From contig CAYSUI010000004.1 in assembly GCA_964434195.1 (NCBI GenBank), positions 4,245 to 68,244 on the forward strand: a stretch of 64,000 bases of DNA. Reading direction: 5' to 3'. The notes beneath the pieces were generated by a model, which searched no databases, was not told where the DNA came from, and was given only the letters and a program-made list of their open reading frames with translations. How positions within the stretch are numbered: the stretch's first letter is position 1; every line of letters starts with the position of its first letter. Both the position numbers and the translations under genes were made by a program. Below are positions 6,091 to 46,168 of the stretch, piece by piece. Origin of the DNA: an uncultured Candidatus Saccharibacteria bacterium. GTDB lineage: Bacteria > Patescibacteriota > Doudnabacteria > UBA920.

Positions 6091-6272
6091 CTCGATTTCA
6101 GATTTTGAGATGAGATTTTAAGAAACGTTCAGTCAGAGTTCGATTTCAGATTTTGAGTGGATTTTTTTCGATTTTCGAGAAGTGAGCGGAGGCGTCCGCG
6201 GGGGGACGGTGTAGCGAGCCTCGGAGAAAATCGGAAAAAAACCGCCAAAATATGGAATCCCGTCAAAACAAG
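6091..6272. repeat. dispersed intergenic repeat, copy A (full length; contains an internal tandem 18-mer)
   Basis: TCGATTTCAGATTTTGAG occurs twice (6092-6109 and 6140-6157), then TCGATTTTCGAG, a GCGTCCG..GGGACGG hairpin, AAAATCGG and CGCCAAAATATGGAATCCCGTCAAAACA. It is homologous to copies at 20974, 42816, 47884, 55145 and 60703. Confidence 0.7.
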
Positions 6273-6281
6273 TATACCAAT

Positions 6282-8246: not shown

Positions 8247-11200
8247 ATGAATTTCACTCATTTACATTGCCACACCCACTACTCGTTATTAGATGGCCTA
8301 AGCAAACCTGAACCCTTAGTAGAAAAAGCAAAAAACCTTGGAATGACTGCTCTTAGCATAACTGACCACGGAGTGCTTTATGGTGCTGTCGAATTTTACA
8401 ACCTATGTCATGATGCGGGCATAAAACCCATAATAGGAATGGAAAGTTATGTAGCCCCACGAACCCGTTTCGATAAAGAAGGCAAAATCGATAGCGATTA
8501 TTACCATCTAACCCTACTCGCAAAAAATTACACAGGTTATCAAAACCTTCTTATGTTAGCCAGCCTTTCTCACACCGAAGGTTTTTACTATAAACCCAGA
8601 GTAGACAAGGAGCTACTTCAAAAATACCACGAGGGTATTATTGCTCTATCTGGTTGCCCAAGAGGAGAAATCGGTAGGAAATTACAGACAAGCACGAAAG
8701 AAGGTGAGAAAGCCTTAGAAGAATATTTAAACATTTTTGGTAAAGAAAATTTCTATATCGAACTCCAGCGCACCAGTGCAAACCCTGATCCAGAGTTAGC
8801 AAAAATATTCGACTCAATGGCCGAGTTAGCCAAAAGAAAAAATATACCCGTAGTCGCCACTCAAGACTCTCACTATATAGACAAAGAGGACGCCGAAGCT
8901 CAAGACATTATGGTCTGTATAGGAATTGGAAAAACAGTAAACGATCCAAACAGATTGGACATGCGTCAGCATGACCTATCGCTCAGGTCCCCGCAGGAAA
9001 TGATAAATCTTTTTAAAGATATTCCCGAAGCAATCGAAAATACTAACAAGATTGCTGAAATGTGCAATCTCGAAATTCCAATTAACCAAAGATACTTCCC
9101 TAAGGTAAAACTTCCAGAAGGAAAAAGCGCAGAGGAACACCTCACGGATACAGTTCACGAAAAATCTTACGCTAAATACGGAAAAGACGGAAGCATTCCT
9201 GAAGAAATACTCACTCGAATAGACTATGAGCTAGATATTATTTGCAAAAAAGGATTCGCACCGTACTTTCTAATGGTCGCAGATATTGTTCATGGCTCAC
9301 ACGAAATAGGTGCAATTACAAACACAAGGGGATCTGCTGCTGGTAGCATTGTTGGTTATATACTCGAAATAACCAATGTAGACCCACTCTACTACGAACT
9401 TCCTTTCGAACGCTTTTTAACTATGCACCGACCCACCCCACCCGATATTGACCTCGATATTTCTGACGTAAAAAGAGACGATGCAATTCGCTACATCACA
9501 GAAAGCTATGGTAAAGACAAGGTTGCTCAAATTATTACATTTGGAACAATGATGGCAAGAGCAGCAGTAAGAGACGTAGGTCGAGCACTAGGTGTCGCAT
9601 ACGGAAAATGCGACCGCATTGCCAAAATGATCCCAATCGGTAAACAAGGTTTCCATATGACCTTGGACAAAGCTATCGAAATGTCAGCCGAGCTAAAAGA
9701 AGTCTATAAAAGAGATCCCGAAACTACAAAAATAATCGACATCGCAAGGCGTTTAGAAGGCTGTTGTAGACACGCCTCTATTCACGCTGCTGGAATTATC
9801 ATTACTCCGGTTCCTCTTACCGACATTGTTCCTTTGCAAAAAGAACCTGACGGAGAAAGAATGATTACCCAATACGATATGTATTCACTCGATGTGAACG
9901 CTAAGGGTAACGCTATCGGTGCAATCAAGATGGATTTGCTCGGAATTAGAAACTTAAGCATTCTAGAGCTTGCGGTTAATTTAGTAGAAAAAAGACACGG
10001 GAAAAAAATAGATATCTATAATCTCCCCCACCCAGATAAAGCTACTTTTGAATTACTTTCAAAAGGTTTGACCTTTGGTGTCTTTCAACTTGGGTCAGGT
10101 GGTATGACTCGCTACCTAAAAGAGCTTAGACCTACAAATATTTTCGACCTCTCAGCAATGATCGCCCTTTATCGTCCTGGCCCCCTCCAATTCATTCCTC
10201 AATTCATAGCAAGAAAACATGACCCAAAACTTATAACTTACCTAGACCCTTCTTTGGAAAAAATACTTCAAAGAACTTATGGAATTTTAGTTTATCAAGA
10301 TGACCTTTTAACCATCGCCCACGACCTAGCTGGTTACTCCTGGGAAGAAGTAGATAAATTTAGAAAAGCTGTAGGAAAAAAAGACGTGGAGGTTATGGCA
10401 AAAGAGAGAGGTAAATTTATAGATGGTTGCGTAAAAACTGTAGGGTGGAGTAAAAATAAAGCCGAAGAAGTATGGGCATGGATAGAACCCTTTGCCGCAT
10501 ATGGTTTCAATAAAAGCCATTCTGCAAGCTACGCTGTTGTTTCTTATCAGACTGCTTACATGAAAGCTAACTTTCCTGTTGAATTTATGGCTTCTGTTAT
10601 GACCTGTGAAAGCGGCAATGAAGATAAAATTTATGCCGCAGTAGAAGAATGTAAGAATTTAAAAATTACAGTACTCCCACCAGACGTAAATGAATCCTTC
10701 GGAGATTTTACAGTAGTAGATGAACACACTATTCGTTTTGGTCTAAATGCTATAAAAAACTTAGGTAGTGATGTCGTAGAACAAATTATTAAACTAAGAT
10801 CAGAAACAAAAGAAAAAGTCCCATTTAAAACTCTCGAAGATTTTCTAATTAAATGCCATACCAAGAACTTAAATAAAAAATCATACGAAGCCTTGGTAAA
10901 AGGAGGTGCATTAGATAGATTTGGCGAGAGAGGAAACCTAATTTTCAACACAGAGAGAGTTCTAGATTTTCTAAGAGAGCATTTTAAAATTAAAACAGAT
11001 GGACAAAATTCTTTATTTGGTAAATCTTTTCAAATTGGAAAGCTCAAACTAGAACCCTCCGGAGAAATATCCGAGCAAGAAAAACTTACCTGGGAGAAAG
11101 AACACCTGGGAATGTACGTAACTTCACATCCCCTAAAAAATTACAAAAAAGTTTTGAGTAATTTCGGTTCCATAAACGCACTTCAGGACGTACCCCTCGG

Positions 11201-11711
11201 AGCGAGTGTTCACCTCGGGGGCATGATTTCAAAAATGAAAAAAATGCTAACCAAAAAAAATGATCCTATGGCAATTTTTACCCTAGAGGATTTAACTGGA
11301 AGCATGGAAGTCATAGTTTTTCCAAAAACCATGGCTCAAGTAGTCACATTGCTTGAAGTTGATAGAGTAATTGAACTAACCGGAAAACTTAACGACAAAG
11401 ACGAAGAACTTAAAATAATCGCAGATTCAATAAAAATTCTCCCAAGCGACGAAATATATCAGATGGCCTTAAGCGAGATGGAAAAAGAAAAACAAGTCCA
11501 TATTCACATCTCCAAAAACGGAACCAAAGAGACACTGAATTCAATCAAAGAAATACTTACCAAATTCCCTGGTAACGCTGAAGTGGTGTTAGATATAACA
11601 ACCGAAGAAGGTGTTAAAAAAATCAAAACCCACACGAAAGTTTCAATTTCTATGGACCTTATAGATCAATTAACCGCTTTAAAAGAAGTAAGCATGGTTG
11701 GGGAAAAATAG
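8247..11711 (+). CDS. dnaE: DNA polymerase III alpha subunit
   Basis: 1154 aa. N-terminal PHP domain (HLHCHTHYSLLDG), polymerase core and an OB-fold C-terminus. Confidence 0.9.
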   Translation: MNFTHLHCHTHYSLLDGLSKPEPLVEKAKNLGMTALSITDHGVLYGAVEFYNLCHDAGIKPIIGMESYVAPRTRFDKEGKIDSDYYHLTLLAKNYTGYQNLLMLASLSHTEGFYYKPRVDKELLQKYHEGIIALSGCPRGEIGRKLQTSTKEGEKALEEYLNIFGKENFYIELQRTSANPDPELAKIFDSMAELAKRKNIPVVATQDSHYIDKEDAEAQDIMVCIGIGKTVNDPNRLDMRQHDLSLRSPQEMINLFKDIPEAIENTNKIAEMCNLEIPINQRYFPKVKLPEGKSAEEHLTDTVHEKSYAKYGKDGSIPEEILTRIDYELDIICKKGFAPYFLMVADIVHGSHEIGAITNTRGSAAGSIVGYILEITNVDPLYYELPFERFLTMHRPTPPDIDLDISDVKRDDAIRYITESYGKDKVAQIITFGTMMARAAVRDVGRALGVAYGKCDRIAKMIPIGKQGFHMTLDKAIEMSAELKEVYKRDPETTKIIDIARRLEGCCRHASIHAAGIIITPVPLTDIVPLQKEPDGERMITQYDMYSLDVNAKGNAIGAIKMDLLGIRNLSILELAVNLVEKRHGKKIDIYNLPHPDKATFELLSKGLTFGVFQLGSGGMTRYLKELRPTNIFDLSAMIALYRPGPLQFIPQFIARKHDPKLITYLDPSLEKILQRTYGILVYQDDLLTIAHDLAGYSWEEVDKFRKAVGKKDVEVMAKERGKFIDGCVKTVGWSKNKAEEVWAWIEPFAAYGFNKSHSASYAVVSYQTAYMKANFPVEFMASVMTCESGNEDKIYAAVEECKNLKITVLPPDVNESFGDFTVVDEHTIRFGLNAIKNLGSDVVEQIIKLRSETKEKVPFKTLEDFLIKCHTKNLNKKSYEALVKGGALDRFGERGNLIFNTERVLDFLREHFKIKTDGQNSLFGKSFQIGKLKLEPSGEISEQEKLTWEKEHLGMYVTSHPLKNYKKVLSNFGSINALQDVPLGASVHLGGMISKMKKMLTKKNDPMAIFTLEDLTGSMEVIVFPKTMAQVVTLLEVDRVIELTGKLNDKDEELKIIADSIKILPSDEIYQMALSEMEKEKQVHIHISKNGTKETLNSIKEILTKFPGNAEVVLDITTEEGVKKIKTHTKVSISMDLIDQLTALKEVSMVGEK

Positions 11712-11721
11712 GAAGCAAACA

Positions 11722-11750
11722 TTGACATAATTCAAAAAAAAGTGTAATAT
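11722..11750 (+). promoter_or_regulatory. near-consensus sigma70 promoter (TTGACA-17-TAATAT, TG-extended)
   Basis: TTGACA at 11722-11727, a 17-nt spacer, and gTGtAATAT at 11742-11750. A TATAAT also occurs at 11748-11753. Confidence 0.55.
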
Positions 11751-11757
11751 AATGGGG

Positions 11758-12320
11758 CTAGAAAGGCATAACCTCTTCTGTGAATTCACTGAATAGGTTT
11801 CCCAATAGCCCTGTAATGCACATTTTAAAATTAGGTTTTCAAGTGGTTTCCTAGTAGTAAGAAATACTTTCTTTTTTATTGCCAGGAAACCACTTGCCGG
11901 AAAAGCTTCGGCGAGCGCAACCTGCACGCAAGTGCAGGCATCCCGGTTGCACAACCGACCCAAAGACAGGTTTCCTTGCTATGGTAGAGAAAAAGTTTAC
12001 ACCAGAGCAAGTCTTTGGGTAAGTAACTATATCCGTCAGAACATGCTAACTAAGTAATGCGCGTTCTGGCACCTCGGAGTCTGCTGCCCCCCCCTTATTT
12101 TTACTCGGCAAGCAAGACTCCTAGTCGAGGAGCGGTAGCAGCAAGAACCCAATGCCCTTGGTTCAACTACCGCTCCTCTGGGGCAAAAAGCAATTCGGCG
12201 TCTATTGAGAAGGGCTAATTTGCTTGCCCCAAGCAGCCGCTCAATTAGACGTAGTCAAAAACCTAATGTGCTCACAGGAAAAGCCGACTCGAAATATATC
12301 GGGCCGGCTTTTTCTCTTGT
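11758..12320 (+). ncRNA. unclassified ~560-nt highly structured GC-rich RNA with its own promoter and terminator (candidate large ncRNA or thrS leader)
   Basis: No ORF. Stems:
- 14-bp stem, 11840-11854 with 11882-11896.
- GCUUCGGC (UUCG tetraloop), 11905-11912.
- CUGCAC-GCAA-GUGCAG (GNRA), 11923-11938.
- GGUUG-ca-CAACC, 11945-11956.
- GGAGUCU/AGACUCC.
- 12-bp GAGGAGCGGUAG/CUACCGCUCCUC, 12127-12138 with 12167-12178.
- GCGUCUAUUGAG/CUCAAUUAGACGU.
It ends in the terminator at 12283-12320. Confidence 0.45.
12283..12320 (+). terminator. intrinsic terminator closing the structured RNA upstream of thrS
   Basis: GCCGACUCG-aaauauau-CGGGCCGGC stem (8 of 9 bp) followed by UUUUUCUCUUGU. Confidence 0.6.
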
Positions 12321-12349
12321 TTGACTTCCCTAAGCCAAACTCTTAATAT
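12321..12349 (+). promoter_or_regulatory. candidate sigma70 promoter for thrS (TTGACT-17-TAATAT)
   Basis: TTGACT at 12321-12326, a 17-nt spacer, and TAATAT at 12344-12349. It starts immediately after the terminator U-tract. Confidence 0.4.
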
Positions 12350-12524
12350 TCCAATATATTTATCACTAAGACCCGACTACCACTCGGCGAGCGATTACAA
12401 ATTTAATAAAATAGCTAACTGGGTTGGAACCGTCTGGTCAACAACTAGACCCCAGAATTTATTTACCATACTTTTGGTAATTAAATTCTGGGTTTTATTT
12501 TTTATTAACATCTAAAATTAGACT

Positions 12525-14273
12525 ATGCAAAACGAAATACTCCAAAATAAAAGACATTCACTCGCCCATCTCTTAGCCGCAGCAGTAATGGAATTATGGC
12601 CCAACACAAAACGTGCCATCGGCCCCGCTATCGACAACGGATTTTATTTTGACTTCGAATTTAAAGAACCTATAAACGAAAAGGATTTAGAAAAAATCGA
12701 AAAGAAAATGAGAGAAATATCCAAAAGCTGGACAACATTTGAAAGACACGAACTTACAGCTGAGGAAGCCAAAAAAGAGTACCCCAATAATCCATACAAA
12801 CACGAACTGATAAACGAGTTTACAAAAAACGGAGAAAAGGTAAGCTTTTATAAATCCGGTGAGTACTGGGATCTTTGCAAAGGTGGTCACACTGAGAACT
12901 TTAAAGACATAGTACCGAGTAGTTGGAAATTAGATAAGATCACTGGTGCATACTGGCGGGGCAATGCCGAAAACACTATGCTCACTCGCATCTATGGCTT
13001 AGCTTTCGAAACCAAAACTGAACTCGAAGATTATCTAAAAATGATCGAGGAAGCAAAAAAAAGAGACCATAAAAAACTAGGCCCCGCCCTAGACCTTTTC
13101 ACTTTCTCAGAATTGGTTGGTCCTGGCCTCCCGCTTTGGACACCTAAAGGCACCTTAGTAAGAAGCTTACTGGACGACTTCGTCTGGTCACTCAGAAAAG
13201 CTAAAGGTTACGAGAAAGTAGAAATCCCCCATATCACGAAAAAAGACCTCTACGAAACCAGTGGTCATTGGGACAAATTCAAAGACGAATTATTCCGTAT
13301 AAAAACTAGAGAAGGGCACGAATTTGCTATGAAACCCATGAATTGCCCTCACCACACGCAGATCTACGCCAGAAAACCACATTCGTACAAGCAACTTCCT
13401 GTTAGATTCGCAAATACAACTGTATGTTATAGAGACGAACAAACCGGTGAACTCTCAGGATTATCCAGAGTAAGAGCATTCGCACAAGACGACGCCCATG
13501 TCTTCTGTAGAAATACTCAGGTCAAAAAAGAAATGGAAGCGGTTTGGGACATTATAGAAAGTTTTTATACTAGCTTCGGATTCAAATTAGAAGTAAGACT
13601 CTCTTTTCACGACCCTGAACAAAAGGAAAAATATTTAGGCTCTAGTGAAAACTGGGAATTCGCAGAATCACAACTTAAAAAATTAGTCGAGGATAGAAAA
13701 GCTAACGCTGAAATAGTCCCCGGTGAGGCAGCATTTTATGGTCCTAAAATAGATTTTCTAGCCCATGACTCCATAGGAAGACGCTGGCAAGTAGCAACAA
13801 TCCAAATGGACATGAATATGCCAGAACGTTTCAATTTAAATTGTATTAACGAAGAAGGAAAAGAAGAGAGGGTCGTAATGATACATGCAGCAATAATGGG
13901 TTCGATAGAAAGATTTCTATCCATATTCATTGAACATTCAGCCGGCAACTTCCCACTTTGGCTTGCCCCAGTCCAACTTGCAATCCTACCCATCTCTGAC
14001 AAATTCAATAACTACGCCAAACAAGCAAAAGAGGAGCTAGAACAACACCTAAAAAACCTCAGAATCGAAATTGACGACAGAAGCGAATCTATAGGCAAAA
14101 AAATTCGCGAATCAACTATCTCAAAAATCCCCTACCAAATAATAGTTGGCGAAAAAGAAGAACAAAACCACACTCTATCTGTCCGCGCAAGAAATGGCGA
14201 AGATTTAGGTACTAAAGGAATACCAGAATTCGCTAAACACTTGCAATCAGAAATTGAAAGCAAATCTAACTAA
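12525..14273 (+). CDS. thrS: threonine--tRNA ligase (lacks the N-terminal TGS domain; starts at the editing domain)
   Basis: 582 aa. HSLAHLL...IGPAIDNGFYFDFEF aligns with the E. coli ThrRS editing domain from about residue 70. Class II motifs, the zinc ligands and the C-terminal anticodon-binding domain are present. Confidence 0.9.
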   Translation: MQNEILQNKRHSLAHLLAAAVMELWPNTKRAIGPAIDNGFYFDFEFKEPINEKDLEKIEKKMREISKSWTTFERHELTAEEAKKEYPNNPYKHELINEFTKNGEKVSFYKSGEYWDLCKGGHTENFKDIVPSSWKLDKITGAYWRGNAENTMLTRIYGLAFETKTELEDYLKMIEEAKKRDHKKLGPALDLFTFSELVGPGLPLWTPKGTLVRSLLDDFVWSLRKAKGYEKVEIPHITKKDLYETSGHWDKFKDELFRIKTREGHEFAMKPMNCPHHTQIYARKPHSYKQLPVRFANTTVCYRDEQTGELSGLSRVRAFAQDDAHVFCRNTQVKKEMEAVWDIIESFYTSFGFKLEVRLSFHDPEQKEKYLGSSENWEFAESQLKKLVEDRKANAEIVPGEAAFYGPKIDFLAHDSIGRRWQVATIQMDMNMPERFNLNCINEEGKEERVVMIHAAIMGSIERFLSIFIEHSAGNFPLWLAPVQLAILPISDKFNNYAKQAKEELEQHLKNLRIEIDDRSESIGKKIRESTISKIPYQIIVGEKEEQNHTLSVRARNGEDLGTKGIPEFAKHLQSEIESKSN

Positions 14274-19714: not shown

Positions 19715-20350
19715 TTATTTAGAGGTATTTTTAACTTTTTCTAAATATTTATCAATAGTCAAAAAAATTCGTTGTTTTACTTCAGTCTTATTACCTAAAC
19801 CACTTACCTTTTTAAATTGGTACTGTTGTTTAAAAAAATCGATAACCTGAGAGACATTCGTCCGATAATAAGCTACTCTATTTTTTAACGCCTCGACAGA
19901 ATCATCTGCCCTTTTCCCAAATTTACCTTCAAAATACCCAACTCTTTTATGCATCCGAGTTATGGTTTCTTTGGTAGGAATACTCAAATAAATTACTATG
20001 GGATTACTTCTTCCCTGCTCTTTGAGTAATTTACTTACAAGCTTAGCTTCACCGAGCATTTTAGGATGACCATCAAACAATATCCCCTTTTCCTTTGGAC
20101 ACTCACTAATTTTATCTCTCAATATTTGTCTTACAATTTGCGTAGGAGACAAATTACCCTTATCAGTGTTCTGTTTTAAAACTTCATCTACCTGCTTATC
20201 TTTTGACCTCAGAACAGTCAATTCTTTACCCATGTCAAAATCATACAGGTCATACTTTCTAGTTAAAAAACTAGCCTGAGTAGCTTTCCCAGCAGCTGGG
20301 TCCCCTATCAGTATTATGTTAATTGGATTCTTTGTCTTCTCTTCCTTCAA
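19715..20350 (-). CDS. adenylate kinase-family nucleoside monophosphate kinase (second paralog)
   Basis: P-loop IILIGDPAAGKATQA at the N-terminus. NMP-kinase fold lacking the LID zinc motif. It overlaps the upstream adk by 32 nt. Confidence 0.6.
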   Translation of the reverse strand: MKEEKTKNPINIILIGDPAAGKATQASFLTRKYDLYDFDMGKELTVLRSKDKQVDEVLKQNTDKGNLSPTQIVRQILRDKISECPKEKGILFDGHPKMLGEAKLVSKLLKEQGRSNPIVIYLSIPTKETITRMHKRVGYFEGKFGKRADDSVEALKNRVAYYRTNVSQVIDFFKQQYQFKKVSGLGNKTEVKQRIFLTIDKYLEKVKNTSK

Positions 20351-20912
20351 GTGCGTAATTTATTTGTTCAGTAACCATTTCGATTTCAGGTGAACCGTCA
20401 ATCGTAATAAAAGTAGTTTTCTCTCTTAAAAAATCCAAAACCGGAACTGTTTGTTTCTCATACATGGACAATCTCATCTCTATACTCTCTTTATTATCAT
20501 CCACACGACCTTCTTTTTCTGCCCTAAGTAACAACCTTTTAATCGATTCTTCCTTAGGTAAATCTATAAAAATGGTCACCATTTTCTGCTTATTGTTTTT
20601 CTCCAAAAACGACAACAAATGCACAGCCTGTCCCAACTGCCTAGGCACACCATCAAATACCAAACCCTTCTCACTCATTAAACCTGGAAGCTTCTCATCC
20701 AATATTTCTAAGATCACCTGGTCAGGAACCAAAATACCTGCATCTAACAGCACTTTTATCTTTTTACCCAATACAGAATTTTCTTTCCCAATTTCTCTTA
20801 AAATTCCACCCATCTCCCAAAAATAAAAACCAAGCTTGGTGGCTAGCAGCCGAGCTTGCGTCCCCTTCCCACTCCCTTGAGGTCCTATAAAAAAAATCAC
20901 ATCAAACTTCAT
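20319..20912 (-). CDS. adk: adenylate kinase
   Basis: The start at MKFDVIFFIGPQGSGKGTQA (20912) is preceded by RBS GGGGAG. The track's 13-codon 5' extension is rejected. Typical Adk motifs. Confidence 0.8.
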   Translation of the reverse strand: MKFDVIFFIGPQGSGKGTQARLLATKLGFYFWEMGGILREIGKENSVLGKKIKVLLDAGILVPDQVILEILDEKLPGLMSEKGLVFDGVPRQLGQAVHLLSFLEKNNKQKMVTIFIDLPKEESIKRLLLRAEKEGRVDDNKESIEMRLSMYEKQTVPVLDFLREKTTFITIDGSPEIEMVTEQINYALEGREDKESN

Positions 20913-20973
20913 CTCCCCGATAATAAGCCATCCCCCCATTTTTTGCAACACTTATCTCTCCTGAAAAAAGTAC

Positions 20974-21110
20974 GCATTGCAGATTTTGGTTCAGATTGCA
21001 CGATCTTTTTCGATTTTTTTACGCAAGCGTCCGTGACGGGACGATGGAGTAAAAAAATCCAAAAAATCGTGCGAGCTGGAGCAAAATATGCGATGCCATA
21101 GCCACAAAAC
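20974..21110. repeat. dispersed intergenic repeat, copy B
   Basis: GCATTGCAGATTTTGGTTCAGATTGCAC...TTCGATTTTTTTACGCAAGCGTCCGTGACGGGACG...AAAAAATCGTGCGAGCTGGAGCAAAATATGCGATGCCATAGCCACAAAACA. Aligns with copy A along its whole length. Confidence 0.7.
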
Positions 21111-21151
21111 ACAAAACCAAAGGAAAAGGCTGCATGTGGGGTTCATGCAGC
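21108..21151 (-). terminator. intrinsic terminator of the GC-rich gene 21204..22625; its U-tract is supplied by the end of repeat copy B
   Basis: GGCUGCAUG-aaccccac-CAUGCAGCC (perfect 9-bp stem) followed on the minus strand by UUUUCCUUUGGUUUUG. Confidence 0.55.
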
Positions 21152-21203
21152 CAAAGTGTTGTGTGTGTACTTATGTTGAGCACAATTTTTTTCTTATTGT
21201 CGA

Positions 21204-44263: not shown

Positions 44264-46168
44264 TTAAGAATATAAAGAGAATCCAGAAGTTATCTCTGAA
44301 ACCTTTTTCTTAGATCCAAAAACTAAAACTCCTAATAATTCTATATCTTTAAATTCCTTTGTGTTTATTTCTTTCATTACTTTTTTATCATCGCTGGAAT
44401 TTATCATTTCTCTAGTAAAAACTTCTGTATGCAATTTTAATTCAACTGCTTTTTCCAATAACTCACCAAGCTCACCTCCCGAATTAGCGCTCTTTATCAT
44501 AATTGCATGACTAGTATTCATTTTTACATCTTTTCCGTCCTTAGAGTGGGTAGAGTCAGAATAAAACAATTTCTTACCCATTCTTGCCCCGTAGGCAGCA
44601 TTTAAATGTGCGACCGTATTTAACTCTTGCCATTTTTCTAAATTGGATGAATTATTAACCACCACTACAGCCAAAGAAGTTTCTTTCTCATTTTTTTGAA
44701 CACTTCCAGAATCTTCCTCTTTCATCAAAGGAAAAATCTGTGTTTCTCTTACAGATTTGTCCATGAGCAAAGCAAACAATCTCTCACTTACACCAAATCC
44801 GGCTGCTGGTGGCATACCGTATTCCATAGCTTCTACATAACCCTCATCAAACATCTGAGCTTCACTATCACCAGCTTCTCTTAACTTAGCTTGTTCAGCA
44901 AATCTCTGTCTCTGGTCTATTGGATCATTTAATTCCCCAAATCCTTTACCCAATTCAGTACCATAGGCAACAACCTGTGCCCTCAAAACAAGCTTTGGAT
45001 TCTTTGGGTCCTTCTTAGCCAAAGGCTCTAGCTCAATAGGTTGATCTATCAAGAAAAATGGCTTGTCTCCAGGAATTTGTTTTCTAAATTTTTTAAAAAT
45101 TACATCTATAAGCCTGCCTCTCTGAGCAAAATCTTCATACAGAATTGAATTTGAATCTGCATAACCTTTTAAATCTTCATCTGAACAACTAAGCAAATCC
45201 AAGCCAGTATATTCTTTGAATACCTGTACATAACTAACCCTAGGCCACTCTCCACTCCAGTCCACAGTTTTCCCTCTAGAGGTTATTATCAGCGTCCCAA
45301 AGGTCTCTTTTATTACGTACTGATACATTTCCTGCCAAAATTTCAAAAGCCCTTCAAAGTCCCCATATGCCCAGTAAAACTCCATTTGCGTGTAATCTTG
45401 CAAATGCTCGGTAGAGATACCTTCATTTCTAAAAATTCTCCCTATTTCAAATACTTTCTCGTACCCTGCCACTAACATTTTCTTCAAAGGCAATTCAAGT
45501 GAAATTCGTAAATAAAAATCACGATCAAGTGCATTGTGGTGCGTGATGAATGGGTCCGCTTCTGCACCTCCAGGTATACCTTCTAAAATTGGCATCTCTA
45601 CTTCCAAAAACCCTCTTTGTTCTAAAAAAGTTCTAAATGCTTGCCAAAATTTATTCTTCTTAACGAATATCTCTTTAACCTCAGGATCAAGTAAAATATC
45701 CAGATATCTTTTTCTTAGTTTTAGTTCGGTATCCTCAATCCCAAAATGCTCGCTCGGCAAAGGCAATATAGCTTTTGCTAGCATACGGAAAGCTGTAACT
45801 TGCAAAGTCTTTTCACCAGTTTTAGTTAGAAACAACTTACCAGTAAATTCAGCAAAGTCACCTATATCAAAATGCTTTTTGAAAAATCTTAATTCATCAA
45901 TACCAACAAACTCATCCTTAAGCAAAACCTGAATTCGAGCAGTCCCGTCTTCGACATGTGCAAAAAAGATCTTTCCCATATCACGCTCAGATCTAATTCT
46001 GCCAACTATAATAATTTCTGCTTCTGTAAGCTCAGAAAATCTTTCTAAAACTTCTTTATTACTGTGTGTTCTATTAACCGAAGAAGGATATGCGTATATA
46101 CCCTGCGTTTCCAGGTCGGCAATTTTATCTTTTCGTATTTGAACAATGTCTTGCAGTCTGTCTTGCAT
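44264..46168 (-). CDS. lysS: lysine--tRNA ligase (class II) with a ~150-aa C-terminal extension resembling the PTH2 peptidyl-tRNA hydrolase fold
   Basis: The N-terminal OB anticodon-binding domain and class II catalytic core end at ...ETQIFPLMK. About 150 extra residues follow (LAVVVVNNSS...VAHLNAAYGA...IMIKSANSGGELGELLEKAVE...LGVLVFGSKKKVSEITSG), co-linear with the PTH2 family. This match is from memory. Confidence 0.85.
   Translation of the reverse strand: MQDRLQDIVQIRKDKIADLETQGIYAYPSSVNRTHSNKEVLERFSELTEAEIIIVGRIRSERDMGKIFFAHVEDGTARIQVLLKDEFVGIDELRFFKKHFDIGDFAEFTGKLFLTKTGEKTLQVTAFRMLAKAILPLPSEHFGIEDTELKLRKRYLDILLDPEVKEIFVKKNKFWQAFRTFLEQRGFLEVEMPILEGIPGGAEADPFITHHNALDRDFYLRISLELPLKKMLVAGYEKVFEIGRIFRNEGISTEHLQDYTQMEFYWAYGDFEGLLKFWQEMYQYVIKETFGTLIITSRGKTVDWSGEWPRVSYVQVFKEYTGLDLLSCSDEDLKGYADSNSILYEDFAQRGRLIDVIFKKFRKQIPGDKPFFLIDQPIELEPLAKKDPKNPKLVLRAQVVAYGTELGKGFGELNDPIDQRQRFAEQAKLREAGDSEAQMFDEGYVEAMEYGMPPAAGFGVSERLFALLMDKSVRETQIFPLMKEEDSGSVQKNEKETSLAVVVVNNSSNLEKWQELNTVAHLNAAYGARMGKKLFYSDSTHSKDGKDVKMNTSHAIMIKSANSGGELGELLEKAVELKLHTEVFTREMINSSDDKKVMKEINTKEFKDIELLGVLVFGSKKKVSEITSGFSLYS

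Follow-up and report, generated by a model that had tools for sequence, protein, structure and literature searches.

Between dnaE and thrS, a 64-kb stretch of low-GC DNA (0.38; hereafter the window) from a bacterium of the Candidate Phyla Radiation (CPR; Patescibacteria) probably carries two separate plus-strand units: a gene for a structured RNA of ~565 nucleotides (nt), followed by a thrS promoter and a compact T-box. This is a single judgement on both units together. The best named relatives of the ThrS and DnaE proteins occur in metagenome-assembled genomes of Doudnabacteria and Paceibacteria. The gap spans 810-813 nt and is the largest stretch of the window free of open reading frames (ORFs), the runner-up having 382 nt. 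An original prediction on this DNA had described it as the largest non-coding stretch, at 813 nt, with a G+C content above the genome level. Both statements hold, and the G+C content at 11900-12300 is 0.49-0.52 compared with 0.38 window-wide.

The first unit (Unit 1, 11754-12318, plus strand) is proposed to be a stand-alone gene for a stable, multi-hairpin non-coding RNA (the large RNA), which would be transcribed from a promoter after dnaE and ended by an intrinsic terminator (Table 1). The promoter is near-consensus, of the sigma-70 type, and begins 11 nt past the dnaE stop codon; its -10 box places the probable transcript start at ~11754. Because the number of promoters over the scanned region is no higher than in shuffled sequences, the reality of the promoters rests on their conservation in relatives. 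TTGACA with TAATAT, TATAAT or TAGAAT also lies directly 3´ of the dnaE stop in the loci L003, L102 and L107, where the surrounding bases differ, and the hexamers are therefore retained in four lineages, that of the window included. The terminator hairpin with its U-tract has a free energy of -21.2 kcal/mol (z = -4.7), and its inner stem was flagged by the promoter/terminator scan. The minimum free energy (MFE) of 11755-12320 on the plus strand is -228.8 kcal/mol, with z = -10.55 compared with dinucleotide shuffles. A strongly structured, discrete non-coding unit with a promoter and a terminator of its own had been predicted, and these values bear it out. The scan recovers both promoters that had been named, TTGACA-17-TAATAT before the large RNA and TTGACT-17-TAATAT before thrS, and the terminator that had been placed at 12283-12320 corresponds to the hairpin at 12276-12315 with its U-tract. 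From these elements, we infer that the large RNA would be expressed as a discrete RNA.

Sequence conservation indicates that the large RNA is under selection. Homologues were sought with blastn and nhmmer in 80 CPR thrS loci from GTDB genomes. Only one of the 80, L003, carries the large RNA; it belongs to a sister species with 90% identity in ThrS and 97.5% in DnaE. Four further contigs of that species from four samples (L103-L106) carry an identical copy. The body of the large RNA is 84% identical between the window and L003, excluding gaps, and the identity rises to 95% in the 5´ hairpin and 98% in the terminator. At four-fold degenerate sites, the identity is 44% for thrS and 65% for dnaE. 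The comparison of 84% in the RNA with 44-65% at these sites shows that the large RNA is under purifying selection, and the functional non-coding RNA of the original prediction is thus conserved well above the neutral expectation in the sister species. The two flanking genes diverge very unequally, both in protein identity and at four-fold sites.

The same comparison bears on a simpler explanation, which we consider doubtful: that the region has no function in trans and is a structured dnaE 3´ untranslated region, terminator or insulator, protecting the mRNA 3´ end and blocking read-through into thrS. Since no terminator is present between the dnaE stop and 12276, the terminator at 12276-12318 would indeed end dnaE read-through too. 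A C-run hairpin also follows dnaE directly in L084, which has no large RNA, and the rapid sequence turnover among lineages fits a weak, non-specific constraint. However, a single terminator would suffice for such a role, a dedicated near-consensus promoter is retained after dnaE in the four lineages, and 84% identity over ~565 nt compared with 44-65% at neutral sites reveals constraint far beyond the terminator.

It is extremely unlikely that the region instead encodes one or more small proteins. The gap had been described as having no ORF, which is inexact, as mechanical ORFs of up to 53 amino acids (plus strand) and 94 amino acids (minus strand) exist; what stands is that no plus-strand ORF of the RNA body is intact in the sister species. 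The plus-strand ORFs of 40-53 amino acids are the only point in favour of coding. All plus-strand ORFs of at least 15 amino acids in 11754-12320 lose their starts or are shifted in frame by indels in L003, and small-protein coding was rejected on this ground. Two minus-strand ORFs (21 and 33 amino acids) are intact in L003 and lie in the near-invariant 5´ part, where the scan finds no promoter for them.

Table 1. Features of the dnaE-thrS gap and the flanking genes (positions in the window).
Feature	Position	Strand	Description
Large-RNA promoter	11722-11750	+	-35 TTGACA 11722-11727, 17-nt spacer, -10 TAATAT 11745-11750; 10 of 12 consensus positions (promoter scan)
5´ hairpin	11754-11812	+	at inferred transcript start; GGGGCUAG...CUAGCCCU; contains GGUUUCC copy 1; MFE and consensus folds
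Closing helix, 5´ strand	11819-11837	+	CACAUU 11819-11824, AGGUU 11833-11837; partner 12260-12270; consensus fold
H1	11842-11894	+	~24-bp hairpin, AU-rich tip; GGUUUCC copy 2 and the sole GGAAACC; MFE and consensus folds
H2	11895-11913	+	CCGGA-AAAGC-UUCGG; consensus fold
H3	11915-11952	+	GCAACC/GGUUGC helix around GCAC-GCAA-GUGC hairpin; consensus fold
H4	11958-12020	+	long helix ACCCAAAGAC/GUCUUUGGGU, internal loop AGGUUUCC (GGUUUCC copy 3), variable tip; MFE and consensus folds
H5	12035-12070	+	GUCAGAAC...GUUCUGGC; contains the segment predicted as P4-3´-like; consensus fold
H6	12076-12121	+	GGAGUCU/AGACUCC stem; loop opens with C8 run 12087-12094, then U-rich; consensus fold
H7	12127-12178	+	12-bp GAGGAGCGGUAG/CUACCGCUCCUC and inner GAACC/GGUUC hairpin; MFE and consensus folds
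H9	12198-12252	+	GCGUCUAUUGAG/CUCAAUUAGACGU, apical GCUUG-CCC-CAAGC; consensus fold
Closing helix, 3´ strand	12260-12270	+	AACCU, AAUGUG; consensus fold
Large-RNA terminator	12276-12318	+	hairpin 12276-12315, 16 pairs in two stacked stems (11 + 5), then UUUUUCUCUU
thrS promoter	12321-12349	+	TTGACT-17-TAATAT; scan
T-box Stem I	12373-12387	+	4 bp CCGA/UCGG, 7-nt loop CUACCAC; specifier ACC (Thr) 12379-12381, then purine A12382
T-box antiterminator	12419-12455	+	A1 CUGGG/CCCAG; 8-nt bulge UUGGAACC; A2 GUCUGG/CUAGAC; -13.7 kcal/mol
thrS leader terminator	12450-12505	+	17-pair hairpin 12451-12492, then UUUUAUUUUUU; -23.7 kcal/mol, z = -7.1
dnaE	8247-11711		Pfam-confirmed
thrS	12525-14273		Pfam-confirmed

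The differences between the two species respect the predicted structure. Loops take up the indels and most of the substitutions. The consensus fold of the two species has 322 paired columns, of which 15 are changed, and 253 unpaired columns, of which 93 are changed; all 12 changed pairs remain paired, three of them by compensatory changes. Several observations weigh against the proposed RNA gene. With two species only, covariation offers thin and partly circular evidence; projection of the MFE structure of the window alone onto L003 preserves 11 changed pairs and breaks 21, and the minus strand performs about as well. In addition, one relative (L084) lacks the large RNA and others carry unrelated RNAs in the same position, which speaks against a core function and would be compatible with a merely cis-acting or structural role. 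The fold by itself does not pick the strand, since the reverse strand, too, is well folded (z = -9.2). Because neither covariation nor folding separates the two strands, the strand of the large RNA rests on the orientation of its promoter and terminator. On these comparative grounds, the large RNA is a new, lineage-restricted orphan family, with good support for selection and for an independent transcription unit.

The predicted RNA consists of a 5´ hairpin and a core of ~440 nt with multiple helices, which is surrounded by a closing helix. The pairs of the closing helix are identical in both species and thus provide no covariation evidence. The helices listed in the original prediction are all present in the sequence, with several corrections. 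The 14-bp stem comprises 13 contiguous pairs, one mismatch and one more pair; H1 has a 3-nt tip deletion and one G-U to A-U change in L003. The UUCG that had been read as a tetraloop belongs to the 3´ strand of the H2 stem in the consensus fold, and H2 exhibits three one-sided changes that keep the pair (G-U/A-U, G-C/G-U and U-G/U-A). The GCAA hairpin exists at 11922-11937, one base from its predicted coordinates. Its loop is ACAA in L003 and the outer U-A pair of its 7-bp stem has become C-A, so the reading as a GNRA loop is not conserved.

The H5 stem differs from L003 by two compensatory changes and one one-sided change, and its loop differs with a 4-nt deletion in L003. H7 has one G-C to G-U change and one C-A mismatch in L003. 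Of three changes in H9, one is compensatory (U-A to A-U) and the other two are one-sided. An alternative pairing of UGGGGCA (12179-12185) with UGCCCCA (12224-12230) is possible and is seen in the MFE structure. Two sequence elements stand out within this framework. The H6 stem and its C8 run are invariant in L003; C6-C8 runs are scarce in these AT-rich genomes (13 per 353 kb), and C6 runs in hairpin loops are also located downstream of dnaE in L084 (3321-3326) and L107 (664-669). GGUUUCC occurs three times on the plus strand (11796-11802, 11845-11851 and 11969-11975) and its complement GGAAACC once (11885-11891) within 180 nt, all invariant in L003, compared with 13 occurrences of GGUUUCC in the whole window on both strands together (128 kb). 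These repeats could be a protein site or could form alternative pairings.

No known family explains the large RNA. The original prediction had been unable to place it and had proposed a run of the Rfam models over the region. Such a run with Rfam 15 gives zero hits at the gathering threshold in the whole window, and at E <= 10 on 1001-nt and 461-nt slices it gives only miRNA-like hairpin noise for the large RNA. Neither the window nor L003 contains a tRNA or tmRNA gene according to ARAGORN; together with the Rfam result, this agrees with the lack of tmRNA features that had been noted. The signal recognition particle (SRP) RNA models of Rfam give no match, and the sole resemblance is an AGCAGCC heptamer at 12232, in the tip of H9. 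A 6S RNA was rejected, as 6S RNA is a rod of ~180-200 nt with a large central bubble, whereas the large RNA is multi-branched, measures ~565 nt and has no Rfam hit. An origin from a tandem or degenerate T-box was also rejected: over 11712-12365, the T-box covariance model described below (R1) scores no higher than 3.4 bits (E = 0.74) when run without filters.

In its general features, the large RNA resembles OLE, ROOL, GOLLD, raiA and HEARO. It is of the same size class, contains many helices and a long-range closing stem, is GC-enriched in an AT-rich genome, and has its own promoter and terminator with no ORF. In contrast, it has no sequence or structure match to their covariance models in Rfam at E <= 10, it occurs in two species compared with hundreds, and it is not associated with tRNA clusters, prophages or their partner genes. 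Two sequences are too few to show an 'ornate' conserved tertiary core.

RNase P RNA requires separate consideration. CPR RNase P RNAs can fall below the Rfam thresholds and carry large helix extensions (PMC8172020), and RNase P was therefore also tested by its defining motifs. The RNase P models of Rfam match neither at the gathering threshold nor at E <= 10; for some CPR genomes a 5-bit threshold was needed (PMC8172020), which is below the reporting level of the tool. No P4 5´ strand of CR-I (similar to AGGAAAGUCCGG, at most three mismatches) is present in the core (11813-12275), and within the gap this motif is matched only by either arm of the terminator stem (12276 and 12304). The universally conserved CR-IV ACAGAA with a long-range P4 3´ strand is likewise absent: UCAGAAC (from 12036) pairs locally with GUUCUG. 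L003 has CUAGAAC at this position, which represents a compensatory C-G to U-A change in the CAGAAC stem, and the bases that follow are deleted. The P4-3´-like segment of the original prediction is thus the 5´ strand of a local hairpin, H5, which covaries and has a non-conserved loop.

Accordingly, a highly divergent essential RNA (RNase P, tmRNA or large SRP RNA) that is missed by standard models is very unlikely. The possibility draws on the evasion of Rfam thresholds by CPR RNase P RNAs (PMC8172020), on the closing helix around the ~440-nt multi-helix core in a CPR host, which is a likeness to RNase P RNA including its divergent CPR forms, and on the CAGAAC segment. Against it stand the lack of any RNase P, tmRNA or SRP hit at E <= 10 on slices of 461-1001 nt, the absence from the core of CR-I, CR-IV and the long-range P4 pairing, and the local pairing of CAGAAC. 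Moreover, its conservation ends at the sister species: the element is absent in L084, and unrelated sequence occupies its place in L083, L102, L107 and L108. Absence or replacement in relatives at 71-76% ThrS identity points to a fast-evolving orphan non-coding RNA and not to an essential universal RNA, and the original prediction fails in this part for want of a model or motif match and because near relatives lack or have replaced the RNA.

Wider searches returned no further homologue. A covariance model of H6, H7 and H9 (R2), applied to 84 sources and with filters off to the closest relatives, finds only the window and L003. A pattern scan of metagenomes with the invariant 19-mer TTGCCCCAAGCAGCCGCTC gives 17 hits, all chance matches in GC-rich contigs, although a different block might do better. 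Searches of phages and plasmids with blastn and a pattern scan of viral contigs show no match, and no second copy exists within the window. Protein-guided retrieval with full-length ThrS, DnaE and the ThrS N-terminus yields no lineage between 76% and 90% ThrS identity; hence no intermediate homologue of the large RNA is available in these collections.

These searches render it quite unlikely that the region was left behind by an insertion of foreign or mobile DNA, for instance an element resembling a miniature inverted-repeat transposable element or another ORF-less element. A G+C content of 0.50 compared with 0.38, the presence or absence among relatives, the resemblance of the closing helix to terminal inverted repeats and a perfect 13-bp pair in L083 would fit such an origin. 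However, no second copy is present in the window and none in the phage, plasmid and viral collections, the metagenome hits are due to chance, no target-site duplication is visible at the flanks, and the helices are dissimilar to one another. Purifying selection at a fixed locus in two species also argues against it.

The position occupied by the large RNA is used differently by its relatives. In L084 (ThrS 71% identical), the dnaE-thrS spacer measures 220 nt and contains a T-box and no large RNA. In L102 (DnaE 74% identical) and L107, a TTGACA-type promoter lies right after the dnaE stop and is followed by different, shorter hairpin units. L083 (ThrS 76% identical) and L108 carry unrelated RNAs of ~800 and ~490 nt; in both, the unit has its own promoter and terminator and precedes the thrS promoter. 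The L083 unit has z = -15, no Rfam match and a perfect 13-bp pair at its inverted ends. Overall, hairpin-dense, non-homologous units with a sigma-70-like promoter and an intrinsic terminator are observed at L083 3000-3760, L108 1-560, L107 560-1120, L102 8535-8790, L010 3466-3790 and L020 3293-3700. The sizes in this slot are 565 nt in the window and L003, ~800 nt in L083, ~490 nt in L108, 170 + 350 nt in L107 and ~250 nt in L102. No sequence or motif common to the upstream units of the relatives was detected. The comparison indicates that an old promoter slot is located between dnaE and thrS, whose predicted RNA product turns over quickly among lineages and is constrained within the lineage of the window.

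The L102 unit (8535-8790) contains a 9-codon mini-ORF (MDNFVNMNF) with a Shine-Dalgarno sequence and two mutually exclusive hairpins, the second of which is terminator-like. By its sequence, this unit looks like a leader-peptide attenuator.

The most likely mode of action of the large RNA, which we put forward tentatively, is that of a trans-acting scaffold or decoy. In this view, a framework of rigid, GC-rich helices would present a few invariant unpaired sequences to a partner, either a protein or an RNA. These sequences may be the H6 loop with its C8 run and U-rich stretch, the CCCC loop of H9 and the three GGUUUCC copies. Two results count against particular forms of this proposal. A Shine-Dalgarno-like motif precedes only 17 of the 59 genes (long ORFs) in the window, and this low use weakens a model in which C-rich loops act as an anti-Shine-Dalgarno sponge. 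The energy of a duplex between the large RNA and the thrS leader, calculated as a test of antisense action, is no better than that of shuffles. It is conceivable, at a rather low probability, that the large RNA belongs to a so far unrecognised, fast-evolving class of large structured CPR RNAs, expressed from the conserved promoter slot between dnaE and the thrS T-box, in which each lineage has its own non-homologous version with a cellular role that relies on displayed loops and not on a conserved core. Such slot RNAs could, for example, titrate an RNA-binding protein or a nuclease, or couple to tRNA-Thr sensing.

The second unit (Unit 2, 12321-12524) comprises the thrS promoter and leader. 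The promoter lies downstream of the terminator of the large RNA; its hexamers are kept in L003, and TTGACG-17-TAATAT is present at the same place in L083. The leader occupies the last ~170 nt of the gap and contains three elements: a short Stem I, an antiterminator and a terminator (Table 1). The specifier ACC in the Stem I loop is cognate to the downstream thrS, with a purine as the next base. In the antiterminator bulge, UGGA (12425-12428) is the predicted partner of the tRNA 3´ end. The original prediction had stated that the T-box consensus is absent; a copy with a one-base insertion, GGGTTGGAACCGTC, is located at 12421-12434, and the T-box sequence reads GGG-U-UGGAACC-GUC. The 3´ strand of the antiterminator (12445-12455) overlaps the 5´ arm of the terminator (12451-12468), which makes the two structures mutually exclusive. 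With -13.7 kcal/mol for the antiterminator and -23.7 kcal/mol for the terminator, the default state would be termination, as expected for a T-box that is turned on by uncharged tRNA.

In the proposed mechanism, uncharged tRNA-Thr (anticodon GGU) would pair with the ACC specifier in the 7-nt apical loop, and its free 3´ end would pair with UGGA of the antiterminator bulge. The tRNA would thereby stabilise the weaker antiterminator against the terminator, and RNA polymerase would read into thrS.

Comparative evidence for the T-box is solid. An alignment of the sequences upstream of thrS from 11 loci exhibits three conserved parts: the hairpin with the CUACCA(A/C) loop; GGG-(UU/AC)GGAA(C/U)C-GUC, which corresponds to A1, the bulge and A2; and the overlapping terminator. 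The covariance model built from this alignment (R1) scores the leader of the window with 90 bits and finds this one site only in the window. It matches 20 distinct CPR thrS loci, always immediately upstream of thrS on the coding strand. In the resulting alignment of 22 rows, which includes one chance-level row (L102 5201, E = 0.92), 92% of the cells are paired and compensatory changes are present in 13 of 15 pairs; none of 500 shuffles equals this result, and slid controls reach 28-54%. All four pairs of Stem I covary across the 22 sequences, nearly all members have the loop CUACCA(A/C), both A1 and A2 covary, and the layout of terminator and antiterminator is identical in all relatives aligned.

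The features of the leader agree with the T-box definitions of PMC7583486, apart from the departures given below. The T-box bulge is defined as 7 nt between A1 and A2, with UGGN at the 5´ edge and ACC at the 3´ end (PMC7583486). The bulge of the window, UUGGAACC, contains UGGA and ACC; most relatives carry ACGGAAUC at this place, the canonical GGGUGGAACCG is present in six distant members, and the canonical GGGUGGAACCGCG likewise occurs in distant members. AAAAG-Stem III-GAA is present in L009, L010, L014, L044 and others, with flanks as described for T-box discriminators. In L072, one of the distant members, the Rfam T-box model RF00230 gives a match of 21.8 bits (E = 0.0037; gathering threshold 93).

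Other features speak against the assignment as a T-box. The Rfam T-box model gives no hit to the leader of the window, nor to L052. The bulge of the window has 8 nt instead of 7, with UGGA offset by one base from helix A1, and in most relatives CGGA takes the place of UGGA. Stem I has no elbow-binding platform, which is thought to be necessary for transcriptional T-boxes (PMC7583486). ARAGORN finds no tRNA-Thr gene in the window or L003 with which the anticodon or the discriminator base could be compared. A long Stem I with a K-turn, a specifier loop and a distal double T-loop platform is not seen in the leader of the window; Stem III with its 5´-RRRxG and AA-3´ flanks is absent in the window, L003, L084 and L102; and no Stem II or IIA/B pseudoknot was recognised.

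Compared with T-box RF00230 and with the class II T-boxes with an ultrashort Stem I (Actinobacteria ileS), the leader (12356-12506) shares a specifier that matches the synthetase and is followed by a purine, the UGGN...ACC bulge between A1 and A2, and two mutually exclusive downstream structures; its relatives add the RRRxG-Stem III-AA flanks and the canonical GGGUGGAACCGCG. As in the ultrashort class, the specifier is mounted in an apical loop. The ultrashort class was described for translational T-boxes; in contrast, the thrS leader would act on an intrinsic terminator and not on a ribosome-binding site, and it has no double T-loop platform. It also differs in the lack of Stem III in the window, the 8-nt bulge, its escape from the Rfam model and its occurrence in the CPR.

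In Escherichia coli, ThrRS binds mimics of the tRNA-Thr anticodon arm in its own leader, the thrS operator. The 7-nt loop on a short stem and the predicted feedback control of the same gene are common to both leaders. Conversely, the loop studied here shows the Thr codon ACC and not the anticodon NGU. A codon in the loop, together with the T-box bulge and the terminator, suggests that the ligand is tRNA rather than the synthetase. Judged from its alignment, the thrS leader is probably a compact transcriptional T-box, which represents a new form within a riboswitch class already described. TBDB draws on two models, the class I model of Rfam and a class II model restricted to Actinobacteria, and would therefore not have reached CPR T-boxes; a full-text literature search returned no paper that links T-boxes with the CPR.

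The original prediction had also considered a very long structured thrS leader. This holds for the last ~170 nt, which form the T-box, and fails for the large RNA, since the thrS promoter lies past its terminator. That the whole 800 nt is one giant thrS leader, with the 12276-12318 terminator as a regulated attenuator before the T-box, is accordingly unlikely. The large RNA does immediately precede the thrS leader, structured units bearing both a promoter and a terminator occur at the same position in L083, L108, L107, L010 and L020, and the 10-mer UCGGCGAGCG after a CCG...CGG hairpin is common to H2 and the T-box Stem I. This 10-mer is expected ~0.1 times by chance, however, and L003 does not retain it. 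A second promoter with conserved hexamers is inserted between the terminator and the T-box; the terminator itself is strong, with no evident competing structure; and R1 finds nothing in 11712-12365. L084 has a T-box without an upstream RNA. Two separate units hence provide the better description of the gap.

In L009 (3700-4000), L014 (3690-4000), L052 (3680-4000) and L107 (1270-1624), an extra 300-400 nt, partly structured, is located between the T-box terminator and the thrS start.

Outside the gap, an intergenic element of ~110 nt occurs twice in the window (6100-6281 and 20990-21130, minus strand), with the common blocks CATATTTTG, CGATTTT, CGTCCC..CGGACGC, AAAATCGAAAAA and AATCTGAA. Downstream of each copy is a minus-strand gene, which codes for an unknown 181-amino-acid protein in one case and for an adenylate-kinase-like protein in the other; the gap at 20952-21203 folds with z of about -8. 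Two adjacent, slightly overlapping adenylate-kinase-like ORFs are located at 19715-20350 and 20319-20951 (minus strand). At several long ORFs (44264-46168 among them), a TATAAT resembling a -10 box immediately precedes the start codon, and many mRNAs may therefore be leaderless.

The non-coding RNA of the CPR is almost unexplored, and a recent perspective on the CPR nowhere mentions non-coding RNAs. A selected, promoter-driven RNA of 565 nt would be a substantial investment for a genome of this size class, and it is evolutionarily unusual that close relatives have unrelated structured RNAs in its place. The thrS leader would extend T-boxes to the CPR and contradict two generalisations (PMC7583486), namely that transcriptional T-boxes need the Stem I elbow platform and that UGGN always abuts A1. 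Its sensor of ~90 nt would rank among the smallest natural tRNA-sensing switches. As this leader is invisible to the Rfam model, Rfam-based surveys would undercount T-boxes. If the slot RNAs do form a class, then together with the minimal transcriptional T-box they would mean that ultra-small CPR genomes invest in RNA regulation that is invisible to current models.

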